A program made the position numbers and the translations under genes. Shown piece by piece: positions 17,241 to 60,915 of a stretch of 64,000 nucleotides of DNA. The notes beneath the pieces were generated by a model. It did not search any database. It was not told the DNA's origin and saw only the letters and a list, made by a program, of their open reading frames with translations. The stretch is taken from positions 1,981 to 65,980 of the forward strand of contig CALVDI010000006.1 of NCBI GenBank assembly GCA_944326225.1. The letters are read 5' to 3'. The stretch comes from an uncultured Bacteroidales bacterium (GTDB lineage Bacteria > Bacteroidota > Bacteroidia > Bacteroidales > UBA932). How positions within the stretch are numbered: the first letter of the stretch is position 1; the number at the start of each line of letters is the position of its first letter.

Positions 17241-17317
17241 AAGGTATGGAATTTAAAATTATTGGGTTAATAGATGTTTACTAAAAAGATGCATAAAAGT
17301 CAGATATCGCTGCACGG

Positions 17318-18786: not shown

Positions 18787-18829
18787 GGATAGATAATATT
18801 TGTCCGGTTAATAAAATAGAATAATCTTG

Positions 18830-19474: not shown

Positions 19475-19543
19475 ATGAAATCGGTTTGAACGGTTAATAA
19501 ATCTTTCTAAAAAGATGCATAAAAGTCAGATATCGCTGCACGG

Positions 19544-20122: not shown

Positions 20123-20131
20123 GGTGCGGAT

Positions 20132-21120: not shown

Positions 21121-21717
21121 TCAGAATGCGAGGCCGATTCTGTACTGGATGTACGGTGCCACGTACCAGTCGATCTGCCATCCTATGCGTGCTCCGACGG
21201 AGAACTCGCCGAACCAGTTCTTGCCCCATACCCTTCTGATGCCGTACATGGGCGTGATGCTTACATCGACACGCGAACTGAAACTCAAATCCTCGAACTC
21301 GCTTATATCGGGGATGAATCTGTTCCCGAGTGCGGTCTGTACTTTCAGCGCGACGAAGTCGGCGGAGTTCTTGTACGTGCTCTTGCCGAGTCTTTGGCGT
21401 CTGTCGAAGTTGGTGTAGAACCTGGGCTCCACGTTTACACCGAGCTTCATGGCGGCACTATATCCAAAGGAGAAATAGTCGTTAAAGACATAGATACCAG
21501 CCGGAACGAGTCCCGCCCTGAAGACCATTGAGAAACTTCCTCCGAGCTTCTGCTCGTATCCGTACTCGAGTCCGAGAATCTGCATGGAGATGGTGTGGTT
21601 GGACACCGCAGCGGTTTTTTGCACGGAGGCGGTGTCTTTCACAGGTTCAGCCGCTGCCACCGTGAGCACGGTGGTAATGAGGGCTGTGCAGATGGTGAAT
21701 AACTTGATAAGTCTCAT
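21121..21717 (-). CDS. Outer-membrane beta-barrel protein
   Basis: Signal peptide, beta-strand pattern, C-terminal ...YRIGLAF. Confidence 0.6.
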   Translation of the reverse strand: MRLIKLFTICTALITTVLTVAAAEPVKDTASVQKTAAVSNHTISMQILGLEYGYEQKLGGSFSMVFRAGLVPAGIYVFNDYFSFGYSAAMKLGVNVEPRFYTNFDRRQRLGKSTYKNSADFVALKVQTALGNRFIPDISEFEDLSFSSRVDVSITPMYGIRRVWGKNWFGEFSVGARIGWQIDWYVAPYIQYRIGLAF

Positions 21718-21846
21718 GTTCGTTAAAAAGTTGTAGAGAAAAGATTAGATATACGGCCCGCGGCAGGTATGCATTGGACCGTATATACGCGGATAGATTA
21801 AGTGAAGTTACTTTTTGCCGGATTCTTGATTGGATACGGTGTAGGT

Positions 21847-22299
21847 TTACAGGGACTCGTACCATTCGATGTATTCCTCCTCGGTCATGCCGTATGGCAG
21901 TTGAGTCATGTGGACTCCCCAGTCGAAGAGGTCAGGGTCGTCAGGGGTGTAGTCGATAGATATCTCTCTTGTCATGGACCCGCTGGTGTTCTCCGAGAAC
22001 GATACATTGATGTTCCTTCCCTCTTGCCATACCCTGCACCATGAGTTCTCCCAGCAGTTGTCCTCGGCATTGAACACCACCGAACCGTATTCTACCTGCT
22101 CTCCTTTTTCTGTGCTCAGATCGCAGATACTGAACCTGACTTCAGTGATGGAATAGCCTGTACGGCCGTCGGGAACGCACGAGACCGTCTGAGCGTCGCT
22201 GGAGACGTACTCGGGCGCGTCAAATGGAAGAATCCGATTTGTCTTCATGCATCCCGTCGCAACCATGGCGAAAGTCAGTAATAACAAACGCTGTATCAT
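21847..22299 (-). CDS. Small lipoprotein, family L150 copy 2
   Basis: Lipobox VATGC. Long blocks identical to 16226-16690. Starts 4 nt after the C10 fragment stop. Confidence 0.7.
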   Translation of the reverse strand: MIQRLLLLTFAMVATGCMKTNRILPFDAPEYVSSDAQTVSCVPDGRTGYSITEVRFSICDLSTEKGEQVEYGSVVFNAEDNCWENSWCRVWQEGRNINVSFSENTSGSMTREISIDYTPDDPDLFDWGVHMTQLPYGMTEEEYIEWYESL

Positions 22300-44999: not shown

Positions 45000-45395
45000 A
45001 TGGAAGACTGGTTAGGTATTGTATTGGGAATCCTGTTTATTCTGGGACCGGCTCTGCTGGAGAAAGGCAGCAGGAAGAAAAAGCGCGGACAGAGACATGA
45101 ACGGCAGTTGCCGCAGCAGGATGAGGTGTATGGGCCGGAGCCGGTTCTGCGGCCTGAGACGACTGAGTCTCAGCTGCCCGAGGTAAGGCCGGTATATGTT
45201 CCGGTTCCGTCCGAAGAACCGATGACGTTCCCTGAGGAGACGGTCTCCAGTGAACCTGTTGCCCGGGAATCTGCTGCACCGGACAAGGCTGTTCCCGTTC
45301 CGGACCGCGGGAGCAATCCCCCTGCCCGCAGGAAACGCCGCTTCAATGGACGGGACATGATAATTTATTCCGAGATACTGAAGCCGAAATTTTAA
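45000..45395 (+). CDS. Small membrane-anchored Pro/Glu-rich protein
   Basis: N-terminal TM (WLGIVLGILFILGPALL), low-complexity middle, basic C-terminus. Confidence 0.5.
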   Translation: MEDWLGIVLGILFILGPALLEKGSRKKKRGQRHERQLPQQDEVYGPEPVLRPETTESQLPEVRPVYVPVPSEEPMTFPEETVSSEPVARESAAPDKAVPVPDRGSNPPARRKRRFNGRDMIIYSEILKPKF

Positions 45396-48025: not shown

Positions 48026-48039
48026 TATGTTTCCGCGGA

Positions 48040-48726
48040 TTATTTGTAAGAAATAATGAACTCTTCAGGAAGAAAGCCCCAGCTGCGGCTGTCATAGGAC
48101 TGTGTCATGTTGTCTCCGCATACAAAATAGTAATCATGAGTGAATACGTGGATACTGTCCATGCGGGGTATACTGTCGTTTTCGTACTCAAAATCTATGA
48201 TTTTATTGTAAATATGCCATAAATGGTGGTCTCTCTTATACAGAGTGTCGCCTTTTTTCGGTATGTAAATCCAAGACATATTGAGTAGATCATCGTCACT
48301 GGAATAGCTGTTGTTAGTTATGACAGAATAGAATAATGGTGACGGATTGAGTGGCGCAGGTATCTGCCTGCAATGATATGTGGAGATGCCTGTCCGTCTG
48401 TTTAAGACAACACCATTGTCTATGCGTAGAGAATCTCCAGGGCCGGCGATACATCTTTTTATAAGCAGGTGATTGGTGTCGGGGGAAATAGTGGGCTTGT
48501 AGTCTTTGTACGGAAAATAGAAGATGACAACTTTGTCTGTAAGATTTTTTCTCCTTCCTTGCTTCAATCTGTAGGCCAGGATTTTATCTCCATCTTCAAG
48601 ATAAGGAGACATAGAACTGTCATGGATTCTGTATATGTCAAACTTGCATGATCCGATTATCATCAAGATTATAACGGCAGCTGCAGATACTGCAGTTGCA
48701 ACTCTATTTAATGTTCCACGATGCAT
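48040..48726 (-). CDS. S26 family signal peptidase I (accessory copy)
   Basis: N-terminal TM. SSMSP (Ser box), IKRCIAGPGD (Lys box), GDNMTQSYDSRSWG (box E): all catalytic motifs intact. Confidence 0.8.
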   Translation of the reverse strand: MHRGTLNRVATAVSAAAVIILMIIGSCKFDIYRIHDSSMSPYLEDGDKILAYRLKQGRRKNLTDKVVIFYFPYKDYKPTISPDTNHLLIKRCIAGPGDSLRIDNGVVLNRRTGISTYHCRQIPAPLNPSPLFYSVITNNSYSSDDDLLNMSWIYIPKKGDTLYKRDHHLWHIYNKIIDFEYENDSIPRMDSIHVFTHDYYFVCGDNMTQSYDSRSWGFLPEEFIISYK

Positions 48727-49198
48727 AATTGATTATTCTACCGTTGTAGACAAGGTATATTCCGTCTTGGGAATAAGTCTCCTCCGGTATGAATATAGTT
48801 GTTATATTTTCAGTCAGTTCATTTATATCTTCTTTTTCCATATAATATCTGAAAACTTCTTCTCCGCCTTTTACAAGAAGTAACTTGAACTCTTTGTCGT
48901 TGTGCATATCATAGTAGGTGCGTATAAAGTCAAATGCATCGGCTATGCAGAAAGAGCAGTCACCTGTTGCGACATATGCGATATATGGTTCTTCTGATTC
49001 TATATTGGCGGCAGCCGTTCTCCAAAGAGTGTCTGTACGTACCATTTTCTGTATGGGGATACATTCTATGTCGTAGATAAAGGAAACGGCATTGATTGTT
49101 TTATGTTTTTTAGCTGTTTGGATATCAGTGCAGCCGTTAATGGCGGACAGACATCCGTGGCTGAAAAGCATGATGAGAATAATCAGTACTTTATACAT
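48704..49198 (-). CDS. Secreted thioredoxin-fold-like protein with a CxxC motif
   Basis: Signal peptide; ...YIAYVATGDCSFCIADA... places CxxC after a beta-strand, as in TlpA/DsbE-type proteins. Confidence 0.5.
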   Translation of the reverse strand: MYKVLIILIMLFSHGCLSAINGCTDIQTAKKHKTINAVSFIYDIECIPIQKMVRTDTLWRTAAANIESEEPYIAYVATGDCSFCIADAFDFIRTYYDMHNDKEFKLLLVKGGEEVFRYYMEKEDINELTENITTIFIPEETYSQDGIYLVYNGRIINYASWNIK

Positions 49199-49199
49199 A

Positions 49200-50099
49200 T
49201 TATAAATCCGTCTCAATAAAGTCGTTGCCTAAAGGAGTGAAAGAGGCATAGCTCTCTGGAGTGTTCTCAACAAAAACAGCAGAGTTGACAAGGTAGACCT
49301 CACTGGCGACCCAGTATCTTGTCTCGTGAAGAATCTTTGCCTCCATATATTTCTTCCGGCTAGTTTTGAGATACAGGTAATCCGGCAGATAGATGTCACC
49401 TTCGGTAAAATAAATATTGTCCAGTGTAAACCTGTAGTATCCGTCTTTATCGGATACAGATATGATTAGCCCCGGAAGACCGTGGAATTTCCAGGGCCCG
49501 GCCTGGGAGGGAATCTCTGTCGTGAACCATGCGGTATAGTCTCTGCCCCTGAAAGTGCATGTAGCCATTACGGCATTGTATCCGGCTATTATTTTAGTAC
49601 TGTCTTGGATAGACCATTCGATATTCATGGATTTTTCTTTATACAGAAAGTCCTGAGTGATTATCCTGCCTGTACAAGTCCATTCGTCATTTTGAAGATT
49701 GTGTATGAAGGTCTCATAGAAAGTCAGCAGACCCACTTTTGAGCCGGCTATTTTCTTATTACCAAGATAACTGGATACGATACCATGACGAACCAGTGAG
49801 TCTGTCTCAAAGAACAGCCGGTTGTAGTACTTGGTGTAGGTTCTGCCGATTTCCAATGTGGCTTGCCCTTCTTCTGTTGCTCCTGTCAAAGTGTCTTTGA
49901 CAAAAGCATAGGAATATCCTGCTCTCATGATAATCCTGTCAAGAGAATCGGCCGGATAGATTTTACTGTCCATAAACAGGACGCTCTCGTATTGGCCGGG
50001 AATGTCACTGTCCATGAAAATCATTGTACTCTGAGCCTTGACTTGCAATATGCAGCAACAGATAACGATGATTAAGACAAAGAATGGCTTGTAGCTCAT
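49200..50099 (-). CDS. GLPGLI family protein
   Basis: Signal peptide and the eponymous motif WKFHGLPGLIISV. Confidence 0.8.
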   Translation of the reverse strand: MSYKPFFVLIIVICCCILQVKAQSTMIFMDSDIPGQYESVLFMDSKIYPADSLDRIIMRAGYSYAFVKDTLTGATEEGQATLEIGRTYTKYYNRLFFETDSLVRHGIVSSYLGNKKIAGSKVGLLTFYETFIHNLQNDEWTCTGRIITQDFLYKEKSMNIEWSIQDSTKIIAGYNAVMATCTFRGRDYTAWFTTEIPSQAGPWKFHGLPGLIISVSDKDGYYRFTLDNIYFTEGDIYLPDYLYLKTSRKKYMEAKILHETRYWVASEVYLVNSAVFVENTPESYASFTPLGNDFIETDL

Positions 50100-51154
50100 T
50101 ATATGGCGAATCTTGTTAATCGCGTAATGCCGTTATTGTCGGTTACTGCGGCATAGATATATCCGTCAGAGTAGGTCATATAGTAATAAATAACCCCGTT
50201 TATTCTATATGCTCCCTTATAGTTGCCATCCCAATCAAAATTGATGAGGTAAGTGTAGAGACTGTCGCTGTCATCACTCATCCCAAGGTATGCCGCATAT
50301 ACATCAGACCCATCGCTGCATGCGCATAAATATGTGTTGCAGAAACCTCCTGACTGCATAGGAATATTGTTTTCGTCAATATTCTTAGGAAATGTAAAGA
50401 CAGGCTGTACATTGTCCGGTCCCGTAATCTTTCTTATAATATTCAGGGAATAATCGTACACTTCAAGCAAGTCGTCAAATCTGTCGAAATAGAGTATCCT
50501 GTCTTTTTCCTTGTTGGAAATCAAGATGCCGGCAGAAATATTCAGTGTCAAGTATTTTCCGTCTTCCCAACCGGGAGTGAAGCCAGGACCGGTAACAAGA
50601 AATTTATCTCCGGCTTCTTGTTTGCTTACTCTTTGGTCATCCGTCCAGTACGGGCTTAAATAGAGGAGTCTGTCCTTGTAGGGCATTATCTGGTTTGTCC
50701 AGAAATCTATCCCGATAACGTCAGGACTGTATCCGCTGTCACTGATTGCACGCCTGAGGTCAACAATAGTGATGCAGTCCTTTATCACGTCGTGCAATAT
50801 AAGTGTATCACCATGAATATAGGGTTGTGCTGAAAGGAGTTGTCCTTGTCCTCTGCCGAACTCTACCGCTGTGTAGATAGGCTCTGCGTTGTTGAATGTG
50901 TATATTTTCAGAAGTTTGTCGCCAGGAGTTTCAGAAGATACGTTTATACAGATTATGCAGCTGTCATTGTATGTCAGCATAAACGGTGCGTCAAGAGTGT
51001 CATACTTAAAGCCGGTGCGTACAGGCTCGGAGGCCAATTCCTTAGCGGAAAGTTTGATTTCCTGTGGAATGGCTGTCGTATCGATGTCTTTTGCAAAAGA
51101 GCATCGGCACAATACCGCAAGGACGCATACTGCGGTAATAAAGTACCTGTTCAT
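50099..51154 (-). CDS. Secreted beta-propeller protein (BF3164 / 6-bladed TolB-like type)
   Basis: Signal peptide. Repeated hydrophobic-strand/Asp-Gly pattern resembling Bacteroidales 6-bladed propeller lipoproteins (recall only). Stop overlaps the next start (TAATG). Confidence 0.55.
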   Translation of the reverse strand: MNRYFITAVCVLAVLCRCSFAKDIDTTAIPQEIKLSAKELASEPVRTGFKYDTLDAPFMLTYNDSCIICINVSSETPGDKLLKIYTFNNAEPIYTAVEFGRGQGQLLSAQPYIHGDTLILHDVIKDCITIVDLRRAISDSGYSPDVIGIDFWTNQIMPYKDRLLYLSPYWTDDQRVSKQEAGDKFLVTGPGFTPGWEDGKYLTLNISAGILISNKEKDRILYFDRFDDLLEVYDYSLNIIRKITGPDNVQPVFTFPKNIDENNIPMQSGGFCNTYLCACSDGSDVYAAYLGMSDDSDSLYTYLINFDWDGNYKGAYRINGVIYYYMTYSDGYIYAAVTDNNGITRLTRFAI

Positions 51155-51186
51155 AAGATTGTTATGTTTGAAATTTCTTATTCGGT

Positions 51187-51462
51187 TCAGTTTTCAGTAT
51201 TACCGCCAAGACCTGGTGTGCCGCCGTTCTCATTTTTCGGTTCAGCCTTACCGTAGCATTTGAATGTTGAGCCACTGGTTGTAACCCCTTTCATGCAGGT
51301 CAGGACTTTCCCTTTGCAGACATAGTCAGTACCGTCCATTGTAAATGAACAGATCTCAGCCTGAACGTTTCGTATGTTGTTAATCTTGCTGATTGTTGTC
51401 AATACTGCGCCGGCAGTAATTGCAAATGCGATGATGATTGCAGTGGCACTGTTTTTTTTCAT
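51187..51462 (-). CDS. Signal-anchored 4-Cys peptide precursor (NVEALA-like leader)
   Basis: MKKNSATAIIIAFAITAGAVLTTISKINNIRNVQA then EICSF...VCKG...TCMKG...KCYG... and a Gly/Asn-rich tail. First gene of the operon. Confidence 0.6.
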   Translation of the reverse strand: MKKNSATAIIIAFAITAGAVLTTISKINNIRNVQAEICSFTMDGTDYVCKGKVLTCMKGVTTSGSTFKCYGKAEPKNENGGTPGLGGNTEN

Positions 51463-51564
51463 TGTGATTGGTTTTAAAAAGTTAAACATATCGTAAAGAT
51501 ATACATAAAAAAACTAAAAAGCAAGTATTGGCAGTAAAAGATTGTTTGATTTGGAAAATTTATT

Positions 51565-51572
51565 TACCTTTG
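51565..51572 (+). promoter_or_regulatory. -7 box (TACCTTTG) for greA
   Basis: Exact TAnnTTTG 71 nt upstream of the greA ATG, far longer than the 4-39 nt at the other plain -7 boxes (only the 84-nt P190 leader is comparable). Confidence 0.5.
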
Positions 51573-51580
51573 CAAAAGAA

Positions 51581-51611
51581 AGAGTCCTGCTCAGGTGCGG
51601 GATTCTTTTTT
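51581..51611 (+). terminator. Intrinsic-terminator-like hairpin in the greA leader (attenuator)
   Basis: 10-bp stem (AGAGTCCTGC / GCGGGATTCT, with two G-U pairs), 6-nt loop, then TTTTTATATTTTAT. Confidence 0.55.
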
Positions 51612-51643
51612 ATATTTTATAAACTCATAAGCAAGATTGTATC

Positions 51644-52114
51644 ATGTCCGAGATTCATTATGTAACATCAGAAGGTCTTGATAAACTCAAGGCCGAACTG
51701 GCAGAGGCTATAAGCCAGAGACCTGTAATATCCAGACAGATTGCCGAGGCAAGGGATAAGGGAGACCTCTCCGAGAATGCAGAGTACGACGCCGCCAAGG
51801 AGGCCCAGGGACTGTTGGAGCTCAAGATATCCAAGCTGGAGAATCTGGTGGCCAATGCCCGCGTAATCGACGAGTCCAAGATCAATACCGACCATGTGCA
51901 GATGCTTACGAAGGTGACCCTCAAGAACCTGCTCAACAACACCACGGTCCAGTACACGCTGGTGGGAGAGAGCGAGGCCAATTTCCGTGAGGGGAAGCTG
52001 GCGGCCGGTACTCCGATAGGCAAAGCCCTTATAGGCAGGCGGAAAGGTGATGTCGTGGAGGTGAAGGTGCCTTCAGGAGTCCTCAAGTTTGAAATTCTCG
52101 ATATCTCACTCTAA
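51644..52114 (+). CDS. greA: Transcription elongation factor GreA
   Basis: 156 aa. ...AEARDKGDLSENAEYDAAKE... coiled-coil tip with the acidic residues. Confidence 0.95.
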   Translation: MSEIHYVTSEGLDKLKAELAEAISQRPVISRQIAEARDKGDLSENAEYDAAKEAQGLLELKISKLENLVANARVIDESKINTDHVQMLTKVTLKNLLNNTTVQYTLVGESEANFREGKLAAGTPIGKALIGRRKGDVVEVKVPSGVLKFEILDISL

Positions 52115-52125
52115 AGCATATAGTC

Positions 52126-52527
52126 ATGTCATCTGTTTTTACCAGAATAGTCAACGGGGAGATTCCTTCCTACAAGGTGGCCGAGACGGAGCACTGCTAC
52201 GCGTTTCTGGATATCAATCCGCTGAAGGAGGGACATACTCTGGTCATCCCCAAGAAGGAGGTCGATTATCTCTTTGATCTGGACGAGGCGCTTTATTCTG
52301 AGCTGATGCTTTTCGCCCGTAAGGTGGCTGCCGCTGTACGGGCCGCCGTGCCCTGCAAAAGGGTAGGCGTGGCTGTACTCGGTATGGAAGTACCTCATGC
52401 CCACATCCATCTTGTACCGCTGGATACAGAAGGGGATCTGGACTTCAGAAAGCAGAAACTGGAACTTACGCCCGAGCGTTTCAAGGAGATATCCGCATCC
52501 ATAGCCGCAGAATATGCAAAACTCTGA
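52126..52527 (+). CDS. HIT family (histidine triad) protein
   Basis: HAHIHLVP histidine triad. Confidence 0.9.
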   Translation: MSSVFTRIVNGEIPSYKVAETEHCYAFLDINPLKEGHTLVIPKKEVDYLFDLDEALYSELMLFARKVAAAVRAAVPCKRVGVAVLGMEVPHAHIHLVPLDTEGDLDFRKQKLELTPERFKEISASIAAEYAKL

Positions 52528-52531
52528 GTCT

Positions 52532-53701
52532 ATGAGATCGAAGTACTACTGGATTGGTATGTTCACCCTGCCGTTGTTCGTGGCTCTTATGACGATGTGC
52601 GGAGACAGGGATACAGCGCGTATAAGTCTTACAGTAAAAGGTGCTCCCGACAGTACTCAGGTAGTGGTCTCACGCTTGGCATTGAATCAGATGCAGGTAC
52701 TGGATACAGTCTGCACCGTCGGGGGGAAGGCGGAGTGCCGTGTGACGGTCAATCCGGGTTCTCCCGAGTTCATATATCTGACTTTTGGCAGTGACGGCGT
52801 GGTCTCCCTGCTTCTGCAGGGCAGGGACAGGGTAAGCGTTGCGGCGGACTGGTCCCGGCCGTCGGTCGTGTCGATTGATGGTTCCGAGGAGTCGGTGCTT
52901 ATGCAGGAGGTGAATGACGGCATCCGGACTTTCAATCACAAGTTCGATTCCCTGTTCGCGGAGATGTCTTCGGCCGAGGCGGAGGAAGATGTAGACAGAA
53001 GTTCCGCTCTCAGGCGCGAACTCGGATTGCTGTATGTGAGGCACAAGCAGGATGCCCTGCAGTATGTGCTGCGGCATAGGGGCTCGATGACGGTAATCCC
53101 GGTGCTGTATCAGGTGGCTCCGAACGGACAGTGGATATTCTCTGAAATGACCGACGCTCTTGTCATGGAGCAGGTGTATGATACTCTGCATACGCTTTAT
53201 CCTGTCTCGCCGTATCTGGCCGCTCTGGCCGACGAGGTCCAGTCAAGGCGCAATGTCATGGATATGGGCAATATTCTTTCGGATGCGGAGGAAGTGGATT
53301 TTCCGGAGATAGCCCTGGCCGATGTGAACGGAGAAATGCGGAGTCTGACAGCCCTCAAGGGCAGGGTGGTCGTGCTGTATTTTTGGGACCCCTCGGTGAT
53401 GGAGCAGCGTATCTTCAATGTCGGGCTGAAAGAACTTTATGAGAAGTACAGTGGCCGTGGCCTGGAGATATACCAGGTGGCCGTGACCCAGGACAAGACT
53501 GCGTGGGCCATGCAGGTCAAGGAACAGGAACTGCCGTGGATCAGTGTCTGCGATCCTTCCGGAGCGTCGTCAGCGGCGGTAGTGATGTACAATGTGTCAC
53601 AGTTGCCGGCCATGTACGTTATCTCCAGAGACGGAGTGATAACGGCCAGAGACCTGTTTGAGACTGATAAGCTGGGACAGGAAATCAGCCGTCTGTTATG
53701 A
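52532..53701 (+). CDS. TlpA/AhpC-like thioredoxin-fold protein lacking the CxxC motif
   Basis: C-terminal VVVLYFWDPSVMEQRIFN sits where FWASWCGPC is expected. N-terminal TM/lipoprotein-like anchor. Confidence 0.6.
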   Translation: MRSKYYWIGMFTLPLFVALMTMCGDRDTARISLTVKGAPDSTQVVVSRLALNQMQVLDTVCTVGGKAECRVTVNPGSPEFIYLTFGSDGVVSLLLQGRDRVSVAADWSRPSVVSIDGSEESVLMQEVNDGIRTFNHKFDSLFAEMSSAEAEEDVDRSSALRRELGLLYVRHKQDALQYVLRHRGSMTVIPVLYQVAPNGQWIFSEMTDALVMEQVYDTLHTLYPVSPYLAALADEVQSRRNVMDMGNILSDAEEVDFPEIALADVNGEMRSLTALKGRVVVLYFWDPSVMEQRIFNVGLKELYEKYSGRGLEIYQVAVTQDKTAWAMQVKEQELPWISVCDPSGASSAAVVMYNVSQLPAMYVISRDGVITARDLFETDKLGQEISRLL

Positions 53702-54427
53702 TCTGTCCGGATGCAGGACGGCATCCAGTTTCCTGGACGGACTGGCTGCGATAAATTCTTTAAGGTAGAACGGTTCGAAGTAGGCTGCATCTTCGAACCG
53801 TTTTTCCGTATATGCCCTGCGGGCCGGTTCCGCCATATATGCGGCATCGGGATGGCTTGCTGTAAATGTGCACCTGTCCAGGTACTCAGGATTGATGACC
53901 TGCCTGTATTTCCCGGCTCCGTCTCCGGTGAATATCAGGTGTCCGTATCCGGCTATCTCTCCGGCGAATGTATCCGGCTCAAGGATGACTGCTTTTGTGT
54001 CGGATATCCTGCGTCCCGATGAGTCGAACAGGGCCGTGTACACCTCCATCCTTCTGGCATCAATCATGGGAATAATCAGGGTATCAGCGGATATGTTCCC
54101 GGTACTCAAGGCGCCGCAGGCTATTGCTTCCAGGGTTTCTACCGCGATAAGCGGCAGGCCTGCTCCGAAGCAAATGCCTTTTGCGGTCGATACGCCTACC
54201 CGGAGTCCAGTGTAGGAACCCGGTCCGGAGCTGACGGCTACGGCCGACAGATCTTTGGCGGAAAGACCGGCCTTTTTCAGGACTTCGTCAATCATCGGAG
54301 CGAGTCCTGATGCCTGACTCTTGGGCTCGGATGTGTATCTGGCGGAAATAATCCCTTTTCCGTCTGTTATGGCTGCGGAACATACGTCCGTGGCCGTCTC
54401 AATAAGCAGTATCTTATCGTTCATCAT
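53696..54427 (-). CDS. tsaB: tRNA t6A37 biosynthesis protein TsaB
   Basis: ILLIETATDVCSAAI..., GPGSYTGLRVG motifs. Confidence 0.9.
   Translation of the reverse strand: MMNDKILLIETATDVCSAAITDGKGIISARYTSEPKSQASGLAPMIDEVLKKAGLSAKDLSAVAVSSGPGSYTGLRVGVSTAKGICFGAGLPLIAVETLEAIACGALSTGNISADTLIIPMIDARRMEVYTALFDSSGRRISDTKAVILEPDTFAGEIAGYGHLIFTGDGAGKYRQVINPEYLDRCTFTASHPDAAYMAEPARRAYTEKRFEDAAYFEPFYLKEFIAASPSRKLDAVLHPDRS
53769..53805 (+). terminator. Rho-independent terminator for the plus-strand gene, embedded in the convergent tsaB CDS
   Basis: AACGGTTCGAAG-taggctgcat-CTTCGAACCGTT followed by TTT; about 70 nt past the stop at 53701. Confidence 0.55.
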
Positions 54428-55637
54428 CGTTGTGTTTTTCTATATCGGCATTGACTTTCATCCCGTCCTCCAGTACTCTGTTCACGGTGCTGTACGGTCC
54501 GGTGACGATCCAGGTGGAGTCCGCGTCTTCCAGGCCTCCTGTTATCTGGATGTTCTCTATGCTCTGGATGCCCGTGCTCACCTTGACGGAGCTGACGGTG
54601 GCCGTGGACGGGTCGTATGTGAATATGCATTCTTCGGAAGTAACGGCCTGCAGGGGTACGGTCAGGGCATTGTCCTGTCTGTCAGTCTCTATCTCTACCG
54701 ATGCGGACATGCCCGGCCTGAACGGGATGGGGTCTTTTTCCAGCAGGTCTGCATAGGATGCCGGCAGCAGCCGGATCCTGACCTCGAAGTTGGTTACGTC
54801 CGTAAGGGCGGAGGTGGCTGCAGTAAGGTTTTTCGCCGAATTGGCAATCTGAGTGACCACTCCCTTGAAACGTCTGCCCGGGTATGCGTCCACGTCGATA
54901 TCGGCCGTGTCGCCTTTTGTTATGCGTATGATGTCATTCTCGTTGACATCCACGAGCACTTCCATCATGTTGAAGTCGGCTATCCGCAGCATCTCGGTTC
55001 CGGCCATCTGGGAGGTGCCCACGACCCTTTCTCCTTTCTCTACGCTAAGGCTGGATATGATGCCGTCGATAGGGGAGTATATGACGGTCTTGGTCAGGTT
55101 CTCCTCGGCCTCGCTCAATGAAGCGGTGGCGCTTTCAATGTTGTACTCGGCGGCCTTCAGCTGTTCCGCGGCCATTCCGTACTCAGCAGTGCTGGCCTCG
55201 AACTCCTGCAGGGAGATGGCCCGCTTCTCATAGAGGTCCCGGTTGCGGTTGTAATTCTGCTCGGCCTGGTCAAAAGCGGCTTTCTGCTGACGGTACTGGG
55301 CCTTCGTGGAGTTGAGGGATGCCTCCGCCCTGTCTCTCAAGGATATGTAGACATCCTGCCGGATCTTGATGATCAGGTCTCCTTTCCGGACTCTGTCGCC
55401 CTCCTCCACGTTGAGCTCGATGATCTCTCCTGAGACATCGGGACTTATCTTTACTTCCGTCACAGGACGTATCTTTCCGTTTGCAGGTATCTTTTCTATG
55501 ATGGTCTCTCTCGTCGGACGGTTGATGACGACAGGCTCGCCCTTGTCCGTCCTTAGCAGAGCAAACAGGACGGCGGCCGTCACAGCTGCGGCCATGGCGA
55601 TGAGAGTGTATCTTATGCCTTTTCTTTTCTTTCCCAT
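54414..55637 (-). CDS. Membrane fusion protein (HlyD/MacA-type periplasmic adaptor)
   Basis: N-terminal TM, lipoyl-like and coiled-coil hairpin, beta-barrel domain; 407 aa. Confidence 0.8.
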   Translation of the reverse strand: MGKKRKGIRYTLIAMAAAVTAAVLFALLRTDKGEPVVINRPTRETIIEKIPANGKIRPVTEVKISPDVSGEIIELNVEEGDRVRKGDLIIKIRQDVYISLRDRAEASLNSTKAQYRQQKAAFDQAEQNYNRNRDLYEKRAISLQEFEASTAEYGMAAEQLKAAEYNIESATASLSEAEENLTKTVIYSPIDGIISSLSVEKGERVVGTSQMAGTEMLRIADFNMMEVLVDVNENDIIRITKGDTADIDVDAYPGRRFKGVVTQIANSAKNLTAATSALTDVTNFEVRIRLLPASYADLLEKDPIPFRPGMSASVEIETDRQDNALTVPLQAVTSEECIFTYDPSTATVSSVKVSTGIQSIENIQITGGLEDADSTWIVTGPYSTVNRVLEDGMKVNADIEKHNDDER

Positions 55638-55639
55638 AA

Positions 55640-56974
55640 TTATAGTGACATAGGTATCCCTTTATAAAAGTCTATGATTTTCAATTGGAATACGAATTGG
55701 TACCTGGCCTGCAGGTATTCTGACCTGGCTTTGAACAGGTTGGCCCTGGCTACGGTATAGTCGGTGCCGTTCAGGACACCGGAGTTGAACTTCTCCTCCA
55801 CGTATCTGAAAGACTCCTGCATGGATGCGACATTGGCCTCGGCTGCTTCCATCTGACGGTAATAGGTCTCGGCTTCAGTAACGGCGGTCTGTATCTCCTT
55901 GTAGAGAGTCTGCTCCTTGGCCCTGAGCTCCAGTTCCAGGCTCTCTCTGGCCAGCCTGGCGTTTCTGACGTTGGTCTTGACGCTCCAGTTGTTGAAGATC
56001 GGGATACTCAGGCCGACGGTTATGGACGGATTGATGTTGTCCCGGAACTGCTCGAAGAACGGATATACGCTTCCGTCCGGGGCAAAGGTTGAGGAACTGT
56101 AGAAGGTCCCGTAGCTGGCGGACAGGGATATCTTCGGATAGAGCTGGCCTTTGGCTGACTTCAGATCCAGCTCTCCTTTGTCCAGGGCCAGTCTGGCACT
56201 CTGTATCACGGGCATGGACAGAGCTCCGGCATAGATCTCGTCGATATTGTCGGCAGTGTATCCCTGTATGATGTAATCTATATCCGGCACAGCTATGCGG
56301 AAGTCCGGACTGTACTGCAGATCCAGCAGCTGCTGAAGGGCCAGGGTGTTGGTCCTGACCTGGCTCTCGGCCGTGACAACCTGCACTCTCTCGGAGGCCA
56401 GCTGGGACTCTATGTCCAGCAGGGAAGTGTAGGGCTGACTGCCGGCCTCTACCAGCAGCCGGGTCCTGTCTCTCTGCTCCTGGAGCGAATGGAAACTCTC
56501 TTCCGCAGCGGCAAGTATTTCCCGGGCCAGAAGTATCTGCAGGTAACTCTTGGCGATGGAGACGGATATCTCGTCCTTGAGCCTCTCGACTTCCTGTATG
56601 GAGATCTCCAGACTCTTCTGACTGCTTTTAAGACCGTACAGCTTTGACAGACCGTCCAGCAGGTATATTGAGGCATTTGCCGACGCGCTGGTGCTCTGGG
56701 ACAGCTTGTTGTGTATGATTTCCAGGTTCTGGAGGTCTACTGAGCGGCCCCAGTTGAGGTTGTGCCCGAAAGAGACATTGAGACTGGGAGCAAAGTCCAG
56801 CTTGTCCTGAAGCAGCTGGGCCTCGCTTCGGGAGACCTCGATGTTCTGCTGCTTGATGGACAGGTTGTTGCTCCAGGCATATTCAATACACCTTTCCAGG
56901 GTCCATGTCTCCTGGGCAAGAGCGGTCTGGCTCAGAACCAGAGCTGAAAGTATTAAGCATATCCTGTAGTTCAT
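55640..56974 (-). CDS. TolC family outer-membrane channel
   Basis: Signal peptide MNYRICLILSALVLSQTALAQ and two tandem OEP repeats. Start set 27 nt downstream of a TATTTTTG box. Confidence 0.85.
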   Translation of the reverse strand: MNYRICLILSALVLSQTALAQETWTLERCIEYAWSNNLSIKQQNIEVSRSEAQLLQDKLDFAPSLNVSFGHNLNWGRSVDLQNLEIIHNKLSQSTSASANASIYLLDGLSKLYGLKSSQKSLEISIQEVERLKDEISVSIAKSYLQILLAREILAAAEESFHSLQEQRDRTRLLVEAGSQPYTSLLDIESQLASERVQVVTAESQVRTNTLALQQLLDLQYSPDFRIAVPDIDYIIQGYTADNIDEIYAGALSMPVIQSARLALDKGELDLKSAKGQLYPKISLSASYGTFYSSSTFAPDGSVYPFFEQFRDNINPSITVGLSIPIFNNWSVKTNVRNARLARESLELELRAKEQTLYKEIQTAVTEAETYYRQMEAAEANVASMQESFRYVEEKFNSGVLNGTDYTVARANLFKARSEYLQARYQFVFQLKIIDFYKGIPMSL

Positions 56975-57001
56975 GCCTTTCCTGTCTATCCTATCGTCGT
57001 G

Positions 57002-57009
57002 CAAAAATA
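57002..57009 (-). promoter_or_regulatory. -7 box (TATTTTTG) for tolC-MFP(-tsaB), formed by the T-tract of the preceding terminator
   Basis: Exact TAnnTTTG on the minus strand, 27 nt upstream of the ATG at 56974. Confidence 0.45.
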
Positions 57010-57057
57010 ATAAAAATAAAGAGGCTGTGGCCGAAATTCGCGCCCGGTCACAGCCTC
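57003..57057 (-). terminator. Rho-independent terminator after the second GG-leader peptide gene
   Basis: GAGGCTGTGACC...GGCCACAGCCTC stem (about 12 bp) followed by TTTATTTTTATTATTTTT on the minus strand. Confidence 0.7.
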
Positions 57058-57062
57058 AATTA

Positions 57063-57233
57063 TCAGAATGCCGAAGCGGTCTGAGGTTTCTTACCGTTTC
57101 TGAGCAAGTCATAAAGAGCCCTGAGAGCCGCGCCTACAAGCCGGCCGAGCATACGTGCCACATTACCCTCTGAGCTGCCTCCTCCTATTATCGAGCAGGA
57201 TTCACTTCTTCTAAGTACGATGAACTGTTCCAT
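57063..57233 (-). CDS. Double-glycine-leader peptide B (56 aa, absent from the ORF track)
   Basis: Codon-by-codon hand translation: MEQFIVLRRSESCSIIGG / GSSEGNVARMLGRLVGAALRALYDLLRNGKKPQTASAF. Leader has L(-12) E(-8) I(-4) GG. 8 nt after peptide A. Confidence 0.65.
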   Translation of the reverse strand: MEQFIVLRRSESCSIIGGGSSEGNVARMLGRLVGAALRALYDLLRNGKKPQTASAF

Positions 57234-57241
57234 AGCAGCGA

Positions 57242-57430
57242 TCAGTTACCGGTTGAACATGCTGCCTCCTTTCCGGTCCACCCCTCGATGAATCCCAACA
57301 GGAACTGATCGATGTTGTCGACGAAGAATTTTACGATTTTGCCCCATAGGCCGGCACCCCCGCGGACGGTGGCGCAAAGGTCAGAATTAACACATTCAAA
57401 CCCTTCATACCTTTGAATAATTCTTTCCAT
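57242..57430 (-). CDS. Double-glycine-leader peptide A (62 aa)
   Basis: MERIIQRYEGFECVNSDLCATVRGG / AGLWGKIVKFFVDNIDQFLLGFIEGWTGKEAACSTGN. Lies 45 nt downstream of the C39-ABC gene. Confidence 0.65.
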   Translation of the reverse strand: MERIIQRYEGFECVNSDLCATVRGGAGLWGKIVKFFVDNIDQFLLGFIEGWTGKEAACSTGN

Positions 57431-57475
57431 GATGCTAGATTTTAATGTTGTGCCGCAGATAAAAGGCGCTGCGGC

Positions 57476-59572
57476 TTACGCCTGTGAACGCGCGTTCTTA
57501 TGTGATAGATCTATTATGTTGTCGGCAATGTCCAGTGCCTGCTCCTCGTGGGATATGAGCACTGTCGTGATATTGTGCTCTTTAAGAAGACAGATAGTGT
57601 CAGTCAGCCTCTTGCGGCTCTCCTGGTCCAGAAATGTGGCCGCCTCGTCCAGAATCAGCACTTTGGGCTGGCGGTACAGGGCTCTGGCCAGGGCTATCTT
57701 CTGTCTTTCTCCCCCGGACAGTCTGCATCCATGCTCTCCGGTATGGGCCGTTATACCGCCCGGCAGGCTCTCTATCGTGCGGGCCAGACCGGCCATGGCG
57801 CATACTGCAGTGACGGAACGCATGTCGTAGTCCCTGTCTCCCATTACTATGTTGTCCAGGATGCTTCCGTCGGATATTTCCGGCTTCTGCGGGACTATCG
57901 AGATGTATTTCCGCCAGGTGTCCAGCGGGATGGTCTGTATGTCCACTCCGCCGGCGGTGATGCTTCCGCTATGGGGCGCATAGCCCCGCATCAGCAGTGC
58001 CGCGACGGTGCTCTTGCCGCTGCCGTTGGCTCCGAGTATGAGGTTGGTCTTTCCGGGCAGGATCCTGAACGAGAGTCCGTCCAGCAGTTGCTCTCTTCCG
58101 GGGAATGAGAAGCAGATGTCTCTGGCCTCGATGATGTCGTCCTGTGCCGGCTGGAACCTTACTGTCCCTGTGGGCTCTTCCCCCTCCAGGTCCAGGATGT
58201 CGAATATCCTCTCCGCTGATATCCGTGCTTCGGCAATCTCACGGCTGCTCTCGATGAGCAGGACTACGGGAGAGCTGAAGACGGTGGTCATGGATATGAA
58301 GGATACCAGTTCTCCTACGGTCAGCTCGGAATTCAGTACGAAAAACGCTCCCGCAAGCAGGGTCGTAAGATATACTGCCCGGCTGACAGTGTCGGAGACG
58401 GAGGCTACGGCCGATGCCAGCACTCCTCCACCGTACAGTGCGGATGCCGTCCTGAAGTACTGTGTCTCTATCTTTCTTACGGCCTCTCTCTCGGAGTTGA
58501 AATATTTTACGTCCCTGACTGCGGAGAGCTGCTCGATGCTGGTCTGCTCGAACCTGGCGTTCTCCTCTATGATCCGCCGGTTGACTTTTCTGTTGAGCCT
58601 GTCCGAGACTATGTACAGCAGGACGAACAGCGGTATGAAGCTCAGGACGATCAGTGTGAGTTTCCAGTAGAAGGTCATGAGCACGGCGGTGGCTATGGTC
58701 AGGGTGATGACGCTTATTGTCATCAGCAGCAGTCTCTCGGTGATGAACGACCGTATGCGGTAGGCGTCTGATACTCTGGAGTTGAGCTCTCCGCTGCTCA
58801 TGGAGTTGAAGAACGACAGCGGCAGCGAGAACACTTTGCGGAAATATTCCGTGATGAGGCGGCAGTCTATCTTGATGCTTGTACGTACCAGCAGGACAGA
58901 CCTTACGTAGGATATGTACCAGCACAGCAGGGCAAGGCATATCATGACGGCTCCTGCGGTCAGCAGTCCGTTGCGGTTACCTGCCGGTATGACCGAGTCG
59001 ATGATCCTCTGCAGGAATACGGATATGCTCAGAGTGGCGGCTATGTAGGCGGCCGAGCCGGCCAGTACCAGTGCCAGCTCCTTTCTGTAGAACGTGAGAA
59101 TGTCCTTGAACCGGCCGAGGATGTCGGTCCTCATGTCTCCCTTTTTGAACATCGGCGAAGGGGTGACGGCGATGATGTAGCCGCTCCATTCTTCTTCCAG
59201 TTCTTTCAGACTGGTCCTGTGCATCCTTCCGTCCTCTGGGTCCATGATCCGGGCATGGTCCTTGTCCATCCCGTAGAGGACCACGAAGTGCAGCCATCCG
59301 CTTTTCTTCTCCAGATGCAGTATGACTGGCCTCTCCACATTACGGAGACTGTCCATGTCCTTGTCCTTCGCCTTCAGTCCGGCCGCTTCAAGTCCCAGCT
59401 TGCCGCAGGCATCGATGACGCCCTGCATGGTGGTGCCGTCCGCGTTTGTCCCGCAGGCCTCCCGTATCCTTATAAGGGGCAGCCTGAGTCCGTAATGGGC
59501 GCATACTGACGCGACGCATGCGGCGGCGCAGTCATTCCGGTCCTGTTGTCTGATTCTGATCTCCTTCTCCAT
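57476..59572 (-). CDS. C39 peptidase-domain ABC transporter (bacteriocin/GG-peptide exporter)
   Basis: QQDRNDCAAACVASV (catalytic Cys), WLHFVVLYG (His), six TM helices, GANGSGKST, LSGGERQKIALARAL, VLILDEA. Confidence 0.9.
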   Translation of the reverse strand: MEKEIRIRQQDRNDCAAACVASVCAHYGLRLPLIRIREACGTNADGTTMQGVIDACGKLGLEAAGLKAKDKDMDSLRNVERPVILHLEKKSGWLHFVVLYGMDKDHARIMDPEDGRMHRTSLKELEEEWSGYIIAVTPSPMFKKGDMRTDILGRFKDILTFYRKELALVLAGSAAYIAATLSISVFLQRIIDSVIPAGNRNGLLTAGAVMICLALLCWYISYVRSVLLVRTSIKIDCRLITEYFRKVFSLPLSFFNSMSSGELNSRVSDAYRIRSFITERLLLMTISVITLTIATAVLMTFYWKLTLIVLSFIPLFVLLYIVSDRLNRKVNRRIIEENARFEQTSIEQLSAVRDVKYFNSEREAVRKIETQYFRTASALYGGGVLASAVASVSDTVSRAVYLTTLLAGAFFVLNSELTVGELVSFISMTTVFSSPVVLLIESSREIAEARISAERIFDILDLEGEEPTGTVRFQPAQDDIIEARDICFSFPGREQLLDGLSFRILPGKTNLILGANGSGKSTVAALLMRGYAPHSGSITAGGVDIQTIPLDTWRKYISIVPQKPEISDGSILDNIVMGDRDYDMRSVTAVCAMAGLARTIESLPGGITAHTGEHGCRLSGGERQKIALARALYRQPKVLILDEAATFLDQESRKRLTDTICLLKEHNITTVLISHEEQALDIADNIIDLSHKNARSQA

Positions 59573-59599
59573 GTCCCGCTCCTCCAGAATGTGTCTTGA

Positions 59600-59749
59600 T
59601 TATATAAAAGGAGTGAACGGCAGTGCGGACAGCAGAAACGCCGCAGCTGCAGCAATCTTGTACCTGATGATTTTCCTGGATGCCATCGGCGGCAGTACGG
59701 ATTCTGCCAGCCGGCCTGTGATCTCCCTCAAACTCTTCTCTTCTTCCAT
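59600..59749 (-). CDS. Small tail-anchored membrane protein (49 aa), first ORF of the exporter transcript
   Basis: MEEEKSLREITGRLAESVLPPMASRKIIRYK then the hydrophobic IAAAAAFLLSALPFTPFI. Near-consensus ATACTTTG box at 59769-59776. Confidence 0.35.
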   Translation of the reverse strand: MEEEKSLREITGRLAESVLPPMASRKIIRYKIAAAAAFLLSALPFTPFI

Positions 59750-59849: not shown

Positions 59850-60344
59850 CTAGATTTTGAACAGTTCCTTGATATAGGGGAATACGGAGTCGGTGATGGA
59901 GGTTATGATCTGTACGCCTTTGGAGCCCTCCAGGGCCTCTTTGGGGACGAGAGTGAACCAGGTGTCATTGACGTATTCTATCAATGACAGCAGGACTCCG
60001 ATGAGGAGCACGGTCGTGGCTATGGACAGCACCATGCCCAGAATCCTGTTGACCCATCCCAGTGTGGCGAGCTGAATGATCTTCTCAAGCAGTTTGCCCA
60101 GCAGGTGCATGCACAGGCATGTAGCAATGATTATCAGGATAAATGCTATGATCTTTACTATATTCTCCGAGGCGTTGACCCACTGGCCGAGCCAGTCTGC
60201 GAGCAGTGATGAGAATCTGCCGGCAAGGATGATTCCTATGAAAAGTCCCGCTATGCCGCCTATCTGGCGGATCAGTCCGTCCTTAAGTCCCTTTATTACT
60301 GCCAGTGCGAGCAGTACAAGGATGATAATGTCAATAACAGCCAT
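59850..60344 (-). CDS. cvpA: CvpA family membrane protein
   Basis: MAVIDIIILVLLALAVIKGLKDG... four TM helices. The ORF-track TTG start at 60353 was replaced by the ATG at 60344. Confidence 0.8.
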   Translation of the reverse strand: MAVIDIIILVLLALAVIKGLKDGLIRQIGGIAGLFIGIILAGRFSSLLADWLGQWVNASENIVKIIAFILIIIATCLCMHLLGKLLEKIIQLATLGWVNRILGMVLSIATTVLLIGVLLSLIEYVNDTWFTLVPKEALEGSKGVQIITSITDSVFPYIKELFKI

Positions 60345-60350
60345 AATGGG

Positions 60351-60358
60351 CAAAATTA
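60351..60358 (-). promoter_or_regulatory. -7 box (TAATTTTG) 6 nt upstream of the cvpA ATG
   Basis: Exact TAnnTTTG on the minus strand. Confidence 0.45.
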
Positions 60359-60431
60359 GTAATATTTTCTTTTATTATAGGCATGAGGATGATAAGATTG
60401 AGATTTTTCTTGCAGATTTATGGTTTTTACC

Positions 60432-60466: not shown

Positions 60467-60808
60467 ATGAGAAAAGGTATAATCTGTATTCTCGCCGCAG
60501 TGATGGGCATACTGCCGTTTCTGACAAGTTGCGAGGAGGAAAGTAAAGTTGAGCATCCCGGACTCTGGCTTTCTGCGGACAAGACCACTATAACCGCTGA
60601 CGGAGAGGATATGGTCACATTCACAGTTACACTTGATGATGAGGACGTGACATCACAATGTACGTTCTGCTCCCAGTCCGAATGCTATGGTAGGAATGTA
60701 TTCACTACCACAACAGCCGGCGAGTATGTGTTCCACGCCACTTATCAGGGGGAGAACAGCGACTATCAGGGACAGAACAGCAATGAGGTGACGATTACTG
60801 CCCAGTAA
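60467..60808 (+). CDS. Small lipoprotein with an Ig-like (Big-type) pattern
   Basis: Lipobox LTSC; ...LSADKTTITADGEDMVTFTVTLD... resembles bacterial Ig-like domains. Confidence 0.6.
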   Translation: MRKGIICILAAVMGILPFLTSCEEESKVEHPGLWLSADKTTITADGEDMVTFTVTLDDEDVTSQCTFCSQSECYGRNVFTTTTAGEYVFHATYQGENSDYQGQNSNEVTITAQ

Positions 60809-60832
60809 CGCCTGTTACTAAAGAAGAGAGTT

Positions 60833-60867
60833 AAGCCGGGTCAAGTCAATTTGGACCGGCTTTTTTG
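60833..60867 (+). terminator. Rho-independent terminator
   Basis: AAGCCGG...CCGGCTT stem followed by TTTTTG. Confidence 0.6.
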
Positions 60868-60889
60868 TCTGAATAATACGAAATCTTTA

Positions 60890-60897
60890 TATCTTTG
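60890..60897 (+). promoter_or_regulatory. -7 box (TATCTTTG) for ileS
   Basis: Exact TAnnTTTG 18 nt upstream of the ATG at 60916. Confidence 0.5.
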
Positions 60898-60915
60898 CCC
60901 GTTAAAATTCAGAAT

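Follow-up and report, generated by a model that had tools for sequence, protein, structure and literature searches.

A conserved exporter locus with two double-glycine, GxxxG-containing peptides in gut Bacteroidales, a candidate two-peptide bacteriocin system

We analyzed a 64-kb stretch of DNA (the window; contig CALVDI010000006.1) from an uncultured, Coprenecus-like gut member of the Bacteroidales. At about 53.7-60.4 kb of the window, the minus strand carries a block of genes in the order cvpA, a 49-residue open reading frame (ORF) with a transmembrane (TM) helix, an ABC transporter that contains a peptidase (PCAT), two small peptide genes (pepA and pepB), a hairpin, tolC, a gene for a periplasmic adaptor of the membrane fusion protein (MFP) type, and tsaB. 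We regard it with high confidence as a PCAT with two substrate peptides, each with a double-glycine (GG) leader and a GxxxG motif. Our preferred reading, which we hold at about even strength, is that the cluster cleaves and exports two small helical peptides that act together, probably as a bacteriocin. The first-pass annotation of this DNA had described the same gene order and features for 54414-59749. All of them were found at these coordinates on the minus strand, and the conserved block also includes cvpA and tsaB. The GC content of the locus, 0.53-0.56, resembles that of the flanks, in agreement with the core-like composition noted earlier.

The PCAT (57476-59572, minus strand; 698 amino acids) comprises a C39 peptidase domain, an exporter domain with six TM helices and a nucleotide-binding domain, all recognized by Pfam (Peptidase_C39 PF03412, E 8e-30; ABC_membrane PF00664, E 1e-43; ABC_tran PF00005, E 2e-26). 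Its closest solved relative is PCAT1 (PDB 4RY2, E 2e-101). The Cys, His and Asp regions attributed to the C39 domain in the first-pass annotation are intact in the alignment to 4RY2. Gln and Cys are found in RQQDRNDCAAAC, His in HFVVLY and Asp in IMDP, and RQQDRNDC, HFVVLY and IMDP align with the equivalent motifs of PCAT1. The motifs GANGSGKST, LSGGERQ and ILDEA of the nucleotide-binding domain are seen in the same alignment. Because the C39 motifs match those of PCAT1, the protease should be active. Scores remain under the curated NCBIfam cutoffs (TIGR01193, 364.9 versus 523.85 bits; TIGR03796, 373.2 versus 853.3 bits). Judged by its sequence, the PCAT is a divergent branch with a domain architecture that fits a bacteriocin-type transporter of the PCAT/AMS kind, and the two adjoining GG-leader peptides are its expected substrates. 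PCAT homologues of about 30% identity that have a C39 domain were also seen in Methanomassiliicoccales archaea (L027-L029, L031, L037; related loci are designated by L numbers). These come from metagenome-assembled genomes (MAGs) of Candidatus Methanoplasma from termite guts, and there is no TolC or MFP gene nearby.

The pepA gene (57242-57430, minus strand) encodes a precursor of 62 amino acids, with a 25-residue GG leader and a 37-residue core (AGLWGKIVKFFVDNIDQFLLGFIEGWTGKEAACSTGN, net charge -1). The pepB gene (57063-57233) follows on the same strand after a gap of 8 nt and encodes a precursor of 56 amino acids, with an 18-residue GG leader and a 38-residue core (GSSEGNVARMLGRLVGAALRALYDLLRNGKKPQTASAF) that is cationic (net charge +4) and strongly amphipathic. 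The GG leaders of the first-pass annotation, and the core sizes that follow from them, are thereby borne out. Homologues of each peptide with 58-86% identity were found in metagenomes and in Candidatus Coprenecus MAGs (Rikenellaceae incertae sedis at NCBI). The GG is invariant among these homologues; across the wider set, Ala-Gly takes its place in two pepB sequences.

For the comparison across lineages, a first set of loci was fetched by PCAT, and a second set was obtained with an adaptor query on metagenomes, which added 33 PCAT loci. Profile and hidden Markov model searches identified both peptides, in order and right after the PCAT gene, in 25 of 25 loci (L001-L024 and L039). In L025 and L038, the genomic relatives farthest from the window, where the PCAT is about 40% identical, the profiles fail, yet two GG-leader ORFs fill the same slot. 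Two GG-leader ORFs were also found between PCAT and tolC in 32 of the 33 metagenomic PCAT loci, the remaining one, L100, having only one. The ratio of nonsynonymous to synonymous substitution rates (dN/dS, Nei-Gojobori) is 0.11-0.52 for pepA and 0.04-0.58 for pepB, and stays below 1 even at saturated synonymous sites. Conservation of the small genes in related genomes, raised as a check when they were first described, thus takes the form of retention in the same slot under purifying selection. Since they are kept in dozens of loci with dN/dS below 1, pepA and pepB are, on this comparative evidence, genuine genes.

An alignment of 27 pepA-type and 23 pepB-type sequences was assembled from lineages with PCATs that are only about 32-40% identical. 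Leaders are 15-28 residues long in all but one sequence, whose deviating value stems from a crude split at the first GG, and cores have 33-51 residues. A single GxxxG occupies a fixed column in all 27 pepA sequences, with the motif [Y/N]xxxFxxG[FLY]xxGW near the C-terminus. In pepB, a single GxxxG is found at a fixed column about 12 residues past the cut (21 of 23; AxxxG in the other two). The window peptides have GFIEG in the pepA core, and GSSEG and GRLVG in the pepB core, GRLVG being the one in the conserved column. GxxxG in both peptides, first noted for the window, therefore holds far beyond it. AlphaFold2 models of the single peptides, of low confidence overall (pLDDT 57 and 63), show pepB as a single long helix (residues 22-46, pLDDT up to 88) and pepA as helical with low confidence. 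The pepA core has one non-conserved Cys, the pepB core none.

Database searches gave little to classify the peptides by. The match that a search of the cores might have provided was not obtained, neither window peptide hitting a Pfam or NCBIfam model at E values up to 10. The described class II models, including GG-leader and lactococcin G-type models, likewise did not match the window peptides. Below threshold, there were a PSMalpha match for pepA (E 0.088) and leader-only matches to the ComC and lactococcin G-beta models. For the distant relative L113, only sub-threshold matches in the leader region were found (for example NF038034, 16 bits versus a cutoff of 37). Searching 1.84 billion representatives with the profile from the pepA alignment gave 10 matches at E<=0.001. 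Short peptides resembling pepA make up six of these; the long proteins seem to be repeats matched by chance, and the matches come without genomic context. An identity as peptides made on the ribosome and modified after translation (RiPPs) was rejected, as the locus is without a modifying enzyme in any lineage.

By the published definition (PMC2850506), class IIb bacteriocins have neighboring genes for two peptides with GG leaders 15-30 residues long, a C39-ABC transporter of their own, and helical cores with a GxxxG in each. By analogy, the present system would work most like a class IIb two-peptide bacteriocin (such as lactococcin G or plantaricin EF/JK) placed in a diderm. It shares with them the two adjacent genes, the GG leaders, the C39-ABC transporter and the helical, GxxxG-containing cores of about 30-50 residues, and in a sister clade an Abi/CPBP protein of the PlnI/PlnL/SkkI family is encoded beside the peptide genes. 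The differences are also clear. Class IIb hosts are Gram-positive, whereas the diderm host has an outer membrane to cross, with TolC and MFP genes adjoining. No similarity at the sequence level could be detected with any class IIb family, and pepA is not cationic. Finally, the locus is core, syntenic and vertical, not accessory, and has no recognizable immunity gene in the window.

Among Gram-negative systems, the closest analogues appear to be CdzABCD/I of Caulobacter and the class II microcins. Cdz is a contact-dependent bacteriocin made of two GxxxG proteins that leave the cell through a type I secretion system (PMC5380434). In Caulobacter crescentus, CdzC and CdzD are two small unmodified proteins with GxxxG, both required for killing and exported by an ABC transporter with an adaptor. 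A small TM protein, CdzI, provides immunity, and CaaX proteases are found near Cdz-like systems. However, CdzC and CdzD have 84-86 residues, RTX-like signals at the N-terminus and hydrophobic glycine zippers of extended length, as opposed to amphipathic cores of 37-38 residues with a single conserved GxxxG, classical GG leaders and a predicted C39 cut. Cdz-like systems are mainly proteobacterial, often horizontally acquired, and have TolC encoded elsewhere; here, tolC adjoins and inheritance looks vertical. Class II microcins such as colicin V (MccV, exported by CvaAB-TolC) use PCAT, MFP and TolC (PMC12219008). They resemble the present system in the small protein with a GG leader, the PCAT, the MFP and TolC, and the link to cvpA. 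They differ in being single peptides with a dedicated immunity gene, mostly borne on plasmids or islands. CvaA is an adaptor of the HlyD type, unlike the MacA/YknX-type adaptor here, which fails TIGR01843. No sequence similarity to known microcins was found for the two peptides.

Bacteroidetocins (PMC6671954, PMC8546649) share the Bacteroidales host, the unmodified GG-leader peptide, the PCAT requirement, the lack of a classical immunity protein and a gene for a small TM protein in the locus. They are, however, single peptides with at least two Cys residues forming disulfides, need a thiol oxidoreductase, and are encoded in a four-gene region without MFP or TolC. The present locus has two peptides without a conserved Cys pair, and TolC and MFP genes adjoin, so the cores are indeed as unlike bacteroidetocins as first described. 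A thioredoxin-like gene (52514-53701) was considered as the counterpart of the bacteroidetocin oxidoreductase and rejected, as it is convergent, belongs to housekeeping synteny and has no peptide Cys pair to act on. Sets of PCAT, MFP and outer-membrane protein genes have been described in RiPP clusters of Bacteroidales (PMC10352776).

The route across the outer membrane is less certain than the identity of the PCAT substrates. The TolC-like outer-membrane factor (Pfam OEP, E 6e-52) was listed as an ORF at 55640-57004. Its likely start is the ATG at 56974 (MNYRICL..., signal peptide), which gives a protein of 444 amino acids encoded at 55640-56974 on the minus strand. It scores 127 bits with TIGR01844, under the cutoff of 225. 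The adaptor (54414-55637, minus strand) has an N-terminal membrane anchor, HlyD_D23/HlyD_3 domains in Pfam and matches to YknX-type domains. It passes TIGR01730 RND_mfp (177.5 bits, cutoff 94.9), and its best PDB matches are MacA structures (4DK0, 5NIK); with the MacA equivalog NF008606 it remains under the cutoff (111.8 versus 342 bits). The MFP homologue search was filled by relatives at least 73% identical and hence gave no outgroup context. The last gene of the block, tsaB (53696-54427, minus strand; t6A tRNA modification, TsaB/YeaZ), overlaps the MFP gene by 14 nt and is identified by TIGR03725 (172.7 bits, cutoff 69.3) and Pfam TsaD. In 82 of 93 loci, with adaptor identities as low as 42%, it comes directly after the MFP gene. 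The genes for a channel, an adaptor and a tRNA-modification protein thus make up a very widely conserved set of three that lacks a pump gene at its side.

As in the first-pass annotation, no MacB-type pump follows the adaptor in the window, where tsaB comes next, and the C39-ABC protein is the only inner-membrane partner nearby. Apart from the PCAT, LptB (7433-8182) is the sole ABC ATPase encoded in the 64 kb, and neither a HlyD-type adaptor nor another pump or exporter gene was found elsewhere in the window. The comparison with MacAB-TolC is two-sided. The best solved relatives of the adaptor are MacA proteins, and it is paired with a TolC-family gene, but there is no MacB (an FtsX-type permease with ATPase) beside the pair in the window or in 25 relatives that lack the PCAT, and the adjoining ABC protein, a PCAT, has the exporter (type IV) fold.

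Between pepB and tolC (57003-57057), a GC-rich hairpin (57057-57021; GAGGCTGTG...CACAGCCTC) is followed by a T-run (57020-57003), and the folded 75-nt stretch has a free energy of -23.5 kcal/mol. The strong terminator placed here earlier was thus recovered, although a simple terminator scan missed it owing to the long loop, and it was read from the sequence and folded separately. Hairpin and T-run occur after pepB in 16 of 16 folded loci, with differing stem sequences. The element would be an intrinsic terminator or, as we read it, an attenuator that keeps peptide expression high and transporter expression lower. TAnnTTTG is the -7 promoter consensus of Bacteroidetes. A promoter-like box, TATTTTTG (57002-57009, minus strand), found by a motif match to this consensus only, lies 28 nt ahead of the tolC ATG and is kept in close relatives. 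It is lacking in L019, L025 and L038. There, about 10 nt lie between the hairpin and the tolC ATG, too few to hold a promoter of its own, and this spacing implies read-through and co-transcription. A promoter of their own for the channel and adaptor genes, as first proposed, is therefore plausible from the motif in the window and does not extend to these three loci. Another, short hairpin (GCCGCAG...CTGCGGC, 57464-57483, minus strand; a terminator-like match) lies over the PCAT stop codon, 35 nt ahead of the pepA ATG. Its sequence does not differ between the window, L011 and L023, and it may serve in processing, in attenuation or within a promoter for the peptide genes.

We lean slightly toward export of the peptides via the adjoining MacA-like adaptor and TolC. 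The main rival is that the two proteins are an old housekeeping pair by tsaB that serves a MacB-type or other pump encoded elsewhere, with the PCAT-peptide cassette just lying, or having been inserted, between cvpA and tolC, while the peptides use another outer-membrane factor or stay periplasmic or cell-associated; we consider this less probable, but a serious contender. Several observations favor it over the adjoining route. The adaptor fails type_I_hlyD TIGR01843 (77.9 versus 208.65 bits) and also TIGR03794, so that of the HlyD/MacA type given in the first-pass annotation only MacA/YknX stands, and adaptors of this type normally serve MacB-type pumps. In 25 informative loci, TolC and MFP genes occur without a PCAT gene, mostly with tsaB next to them; the adaptors are 42-57% identical. 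No MacB was found near the pair in these relatives, either upstream or downstream, the neighbors being housekeeping genes unrelated to it, for YgjP-like protein, EF-P, DUF3108, a SpoIIE-type phosphatase, a helicase and a carboxyltransferase. Since the pair is present without PCAT or MacB, it must be capable of working with a pump whose gene lies at another place, and other partners than the PCAT are conceivable for it. One PCAT-less locus, L067, has a 1153-residue ORF in the IleRS position, followed by cvpA, tolC, MFP and tsaB; it is syntenic except that the 2.8-kb cassette is absent. Pairwise protein distances among 35 representative loci correlate with r 0.95 for TolC and MFP, but only with r 0.63-0.64 for PCAT with TolC or MFP, and the value for PCAT and MFP (0.63) is below that for PCAT and tsaB (0.83). 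The history of TolC and MFP thus seems partly separate from that of the PCAT cassette. In addition, the terminator-like hairpin divides the two gene sets, with a promoter-like box behind it in most lineages, and the colicin V and Cdz systems rely on a TolC encoded elsewhere.

Against this rival, every informative PCAT locus has the cassette directly upstream of tolC, the three loci without promoter space imply co-transcription, and the window offers no HlyD-type adaptor or other pump as an alternative partner. Moreover, a diderm PCAT needs some adaptor and channel to reach the outside, as known from type I secretion (PMC12219008). The tripartite route of the first-pass annotation is accordingly backed by an invariant adjacency in PCAT loci, and it is weakened by the MacA type of the adaptor, the trio without PCAT and the low correlation. 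Two groups of loci were also compared for their distance to the window (L025, L038, L094, L097, L100 and L113 versus L062-L090). PCAT, cvpA and tsaB are slightly closer in one group, and the TolC of this same group is far more divergent (p-distance 0.63-0.71 versus 0.47-0.57), which would reflect either faster evolution or replacement of its TolC/MFP.

The first gene of the conserved block is cvpA (59850-60353, minus strand; Pfam PF02674 Colicin_V, E 2.5e-30), which encodes a membrane protein of the colicin V production family. It is directly upstream of the PCAT gene in 55 of 58 informative PCAT loci, many of them close relatives of each other, and 22 of the 25 PCAT-less TolC-MFP loci are without cvpA within reach. 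PCAT divergence tracks that of cvpA (r 0.89) and tsaB (r 0.83). In L070 and L068, cvpA is inverted and sits directly after tsaB and not ahead of the PCAT gene, so that it is still linked despite rearrangement. The chromosomal cvpA of E. coli was linked early to colicin V secretion and is described as largely uncharacterized in function (bioRxiv 10.1101/2020.09.25.314492). We treat the association of cvpA and PCAT as a lead and not a finding, as much of it could be inherited synteny.

The 49-residue tail-anchored membrane ORF (MEEEKSLREITGRLAESVLPP...TM; 59600-59749, minus strand), with a C-terminal helix, matches no Pfam or NCBIfam family and has a dN/dS of 0.2-0.42. It is the small TM ORF of the first-pass annotation, for which 59749, given as the end coordinate, is the ATG. 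We regard it as a candidate immunity or accessory protein, so that the earlier statement that no obvious immunity gene is present is upheld for known families in the window but leaves this conserved ORF to be considered. In a sister clade, the gene directly after pepB and ahead of tolC encodes a membrane protein of 240 amino acids from family PF02517 (Rce1-like/CPBP, Abi; 57-61 bits, cutoff 22.4). It was found in 10 loci (L077-L081, L086, L088-L090 and L092; for example L077:6865-7587), and an eleventh, L075, has a fragment of it where the contig begins. Abi/CPBP is also the family of PlnI, PlnL and SkkI, which are immunity proteins of class IIb systems (PMC8538875).

Close and intermediate relatives share the neighborhood IleRS, cvpA, small ORF, PCAT, pepA, pepB, tolC, MFP and tsaB, followed by the thioredoxin-like gene, HIT, GreA and RibF. 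The PCAT cassette looks vertically inherited, and the locus core and syntenic rather than an island. In L011 (OZ006987.1), the complete genome of a conspecific, the locus matches the window at 96-100% identity, save for one sharply bounded block of about 410 bp. Within this divergent, presumably recombinant block (56915-57321) fall the second (3') half of pepA, the whole of pepB, the hairpin with the promoter region, and the signal-peptide codons of tolC. Identity between window and L011 is 62.6% in the block (over 56905-57322) and 98.1% just upstream. Within the block, L011 is 87.5% identical to C. pullicola (L023). Because L011 resembles C. pullicola there, it is the window's allele that looks to have been imported, its source being a lineage not yet sampled. 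Bacteriocin and pheromone loci typically undergo such replacement of cassettes. For pepB, dS is 2.8 and dN 0.10, as compared with a dS of 0.04-0.08 in the PCAT, MFP and tsaB genes. In 100-nt bins, the conspecific genomes L010 and L011 also fall to about 84-85% identity with the window inside cvpA, and to about 71-90% just beyond it (60200-60400 and 60700-60900); the other bins of the locus are 96-100% identical, the peptide block of L011 excepted. Because of these drops, recombination mosaics are not confined to the peptide block.

Whether the two peptides are antibacterial is, as far as genes and their evolution can tell, an even call. The candidate bacteriocin of the first-pass annotation gains from the Abi/CPBP gene in the sister clade and from the replacement of the core allele. 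A different set of observations counts against antagonism. The content of two peptides is constant in a core locus under purifying selection, with PCATs as far apart as about 32-40% identity, and such conservation is unusual for bacteriocin loci, which are usually accessory. The allelic difference is an excess of synonymous changes, which indicates that old alleles were exchanged rather than diversified by selection where they are. Neither window peptide belongs to a recognized Pfam or NCBIfam family, pepA is near neutral, and Pfam and NCBIfam recognized no known immunity family in the window. The candidate immunity ORF has counterparts, homologous or analogous, in the same slot in several clades, but is absent from others.

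An alternative is that the peptides, processed and exported by the PCAT all the same, have a conserved, non-antagonistic job: as a cell-cell signal whose alleles are pherotypes, as a surfactant or biofilm peptide comparable to the phenol-soluble modulins of staphylococci, or in the envelope in connection with cvpA. We think this rather unlikely. It would account for the deep vertical conservation amid housekeeping genes (IleRS, cvpA, tsaB, HIT, GreA, RibF), for a PCAT that diverges in step with cvpA and tsaB with no apparent horizontal transfer of the cassette, for purifying selection on both cores and for the lack of a recognizable immunity gene in the window. Allelic replacement of cores is as typical of pheromone loci, and the sub-threshold PSMalpha match of pepA points the same way. 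Yet no sensor kinase or regulator adjoins the locus in any lineage, the nearest histidine kinase being about 40 kb off, and cores of 33-51 residues exceed the typical length of GG-type pheromones. The fixed GxxxG in both peptides is a hallmark of class IIb, a gene of an immunity family follows pepB in one clade, and the clean absence of the cassette from the otherwise syntenic L067 makes it dispensable. A related proposal is that cvpA-PCAT-pepA-pepB-tolC-MFP-tsaB is an ancient, family-wide housekeeping secretion module rather than a weapon of single strains, in which cvpA would be a partner of PCAT export and the peptides would have a job in the envelope or in kin recognition; we consider it unlikely. 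Last, the possibility that the small ORFs are chance frames and that the PCAT exports something else, which could draw only on the missing family matches, is effectively refuted by the order and strand kept in related PCAT loci (with one ORF in L100), the conserved cleavage and fixed-column motifs, and a dN/dS well below 1 even with saturated synonymous sites.

Returning to the two-peptide bacteriocin, we propose the following course of events. The observed and conserved genes pepA and pepB would be translated into precursors with GG leaders of 25 and 18 residues. To judge from its catalytic motifs and from PCAT biology, the C39 domain would cut after the GG, and the PCAT would move the cores of 37 and 38 residues over the inner membrane. 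The cores may then pair helix to helix via GxxxG, and the pair might hit the membrane, or a membrane protein, of competing relatives, as do class IIb bacteriocins and CdzC/D. The outer membrane would most likely be crossed through the co-located TolC-like channel and the MacA-like adaptor, expressed by read-through of the hairpin and/or from the promoter behind it; this is the least secure step. The producer could be protected by the small TM protein, by cvpA or by a gene located elsewhere, and in the sister clade by the Abi/CPBP protein encoded after pepB.

Other parts of the window have features of their own. On the minus strand at 16226-22299, there are nine small ORFs (150-214 amino acids) with N-termini like those of signal peptides or lipoproteins; seven of the nine were scanned and matched no Pfam family. 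Paralogues among them are 16226-16690 and 21847-22299 (82% identity), and 17318-17890, 19544-20122 and 20132-20719 (mutually 59-81%). The region 45000-52000 has a lower GC content (0.39-0.46, versus about 0.55 around it) and contains genes for an 877-residue protein with a CarboxypepD_reg domain, a signal peptidase of family S26, and two further proteins, 299 and 351 amino acids long. No RNA family was found anywhere in the window (Rfam at the gathering threshold).

A literature search, incomplete and hence no proof of absence, found no description of an unmodified two-peptide module linked to cvpA and tsaB. If the peptides are a bacteriocin, this would to our knowledge be the first class IIb-like two-peptide system in Bacteroidales, and a rare case in which PCAT, adaptor and TolC-like channel are encoded together, with a defined outer-membrane route, unlike bacteroidetocin loci. 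Should the PCAT really work with a MacA-type adaptor, the tripartite assembly would be non-canonical. The position of cvpA beside a PCAT gene, with both diverging in step, makes the link between cvpA and colicin V testable in a new setting, and if the locus is instead a housekeeping module, it would provide the first natural genomic context for the cvpA-colicin V secretion link of E. coli. As the locus is conserved in a wide set of Bacteroidales from gut, rumen and digesters, it could shape competition or kin recognition throughout a family of uncultured gut bacteria.

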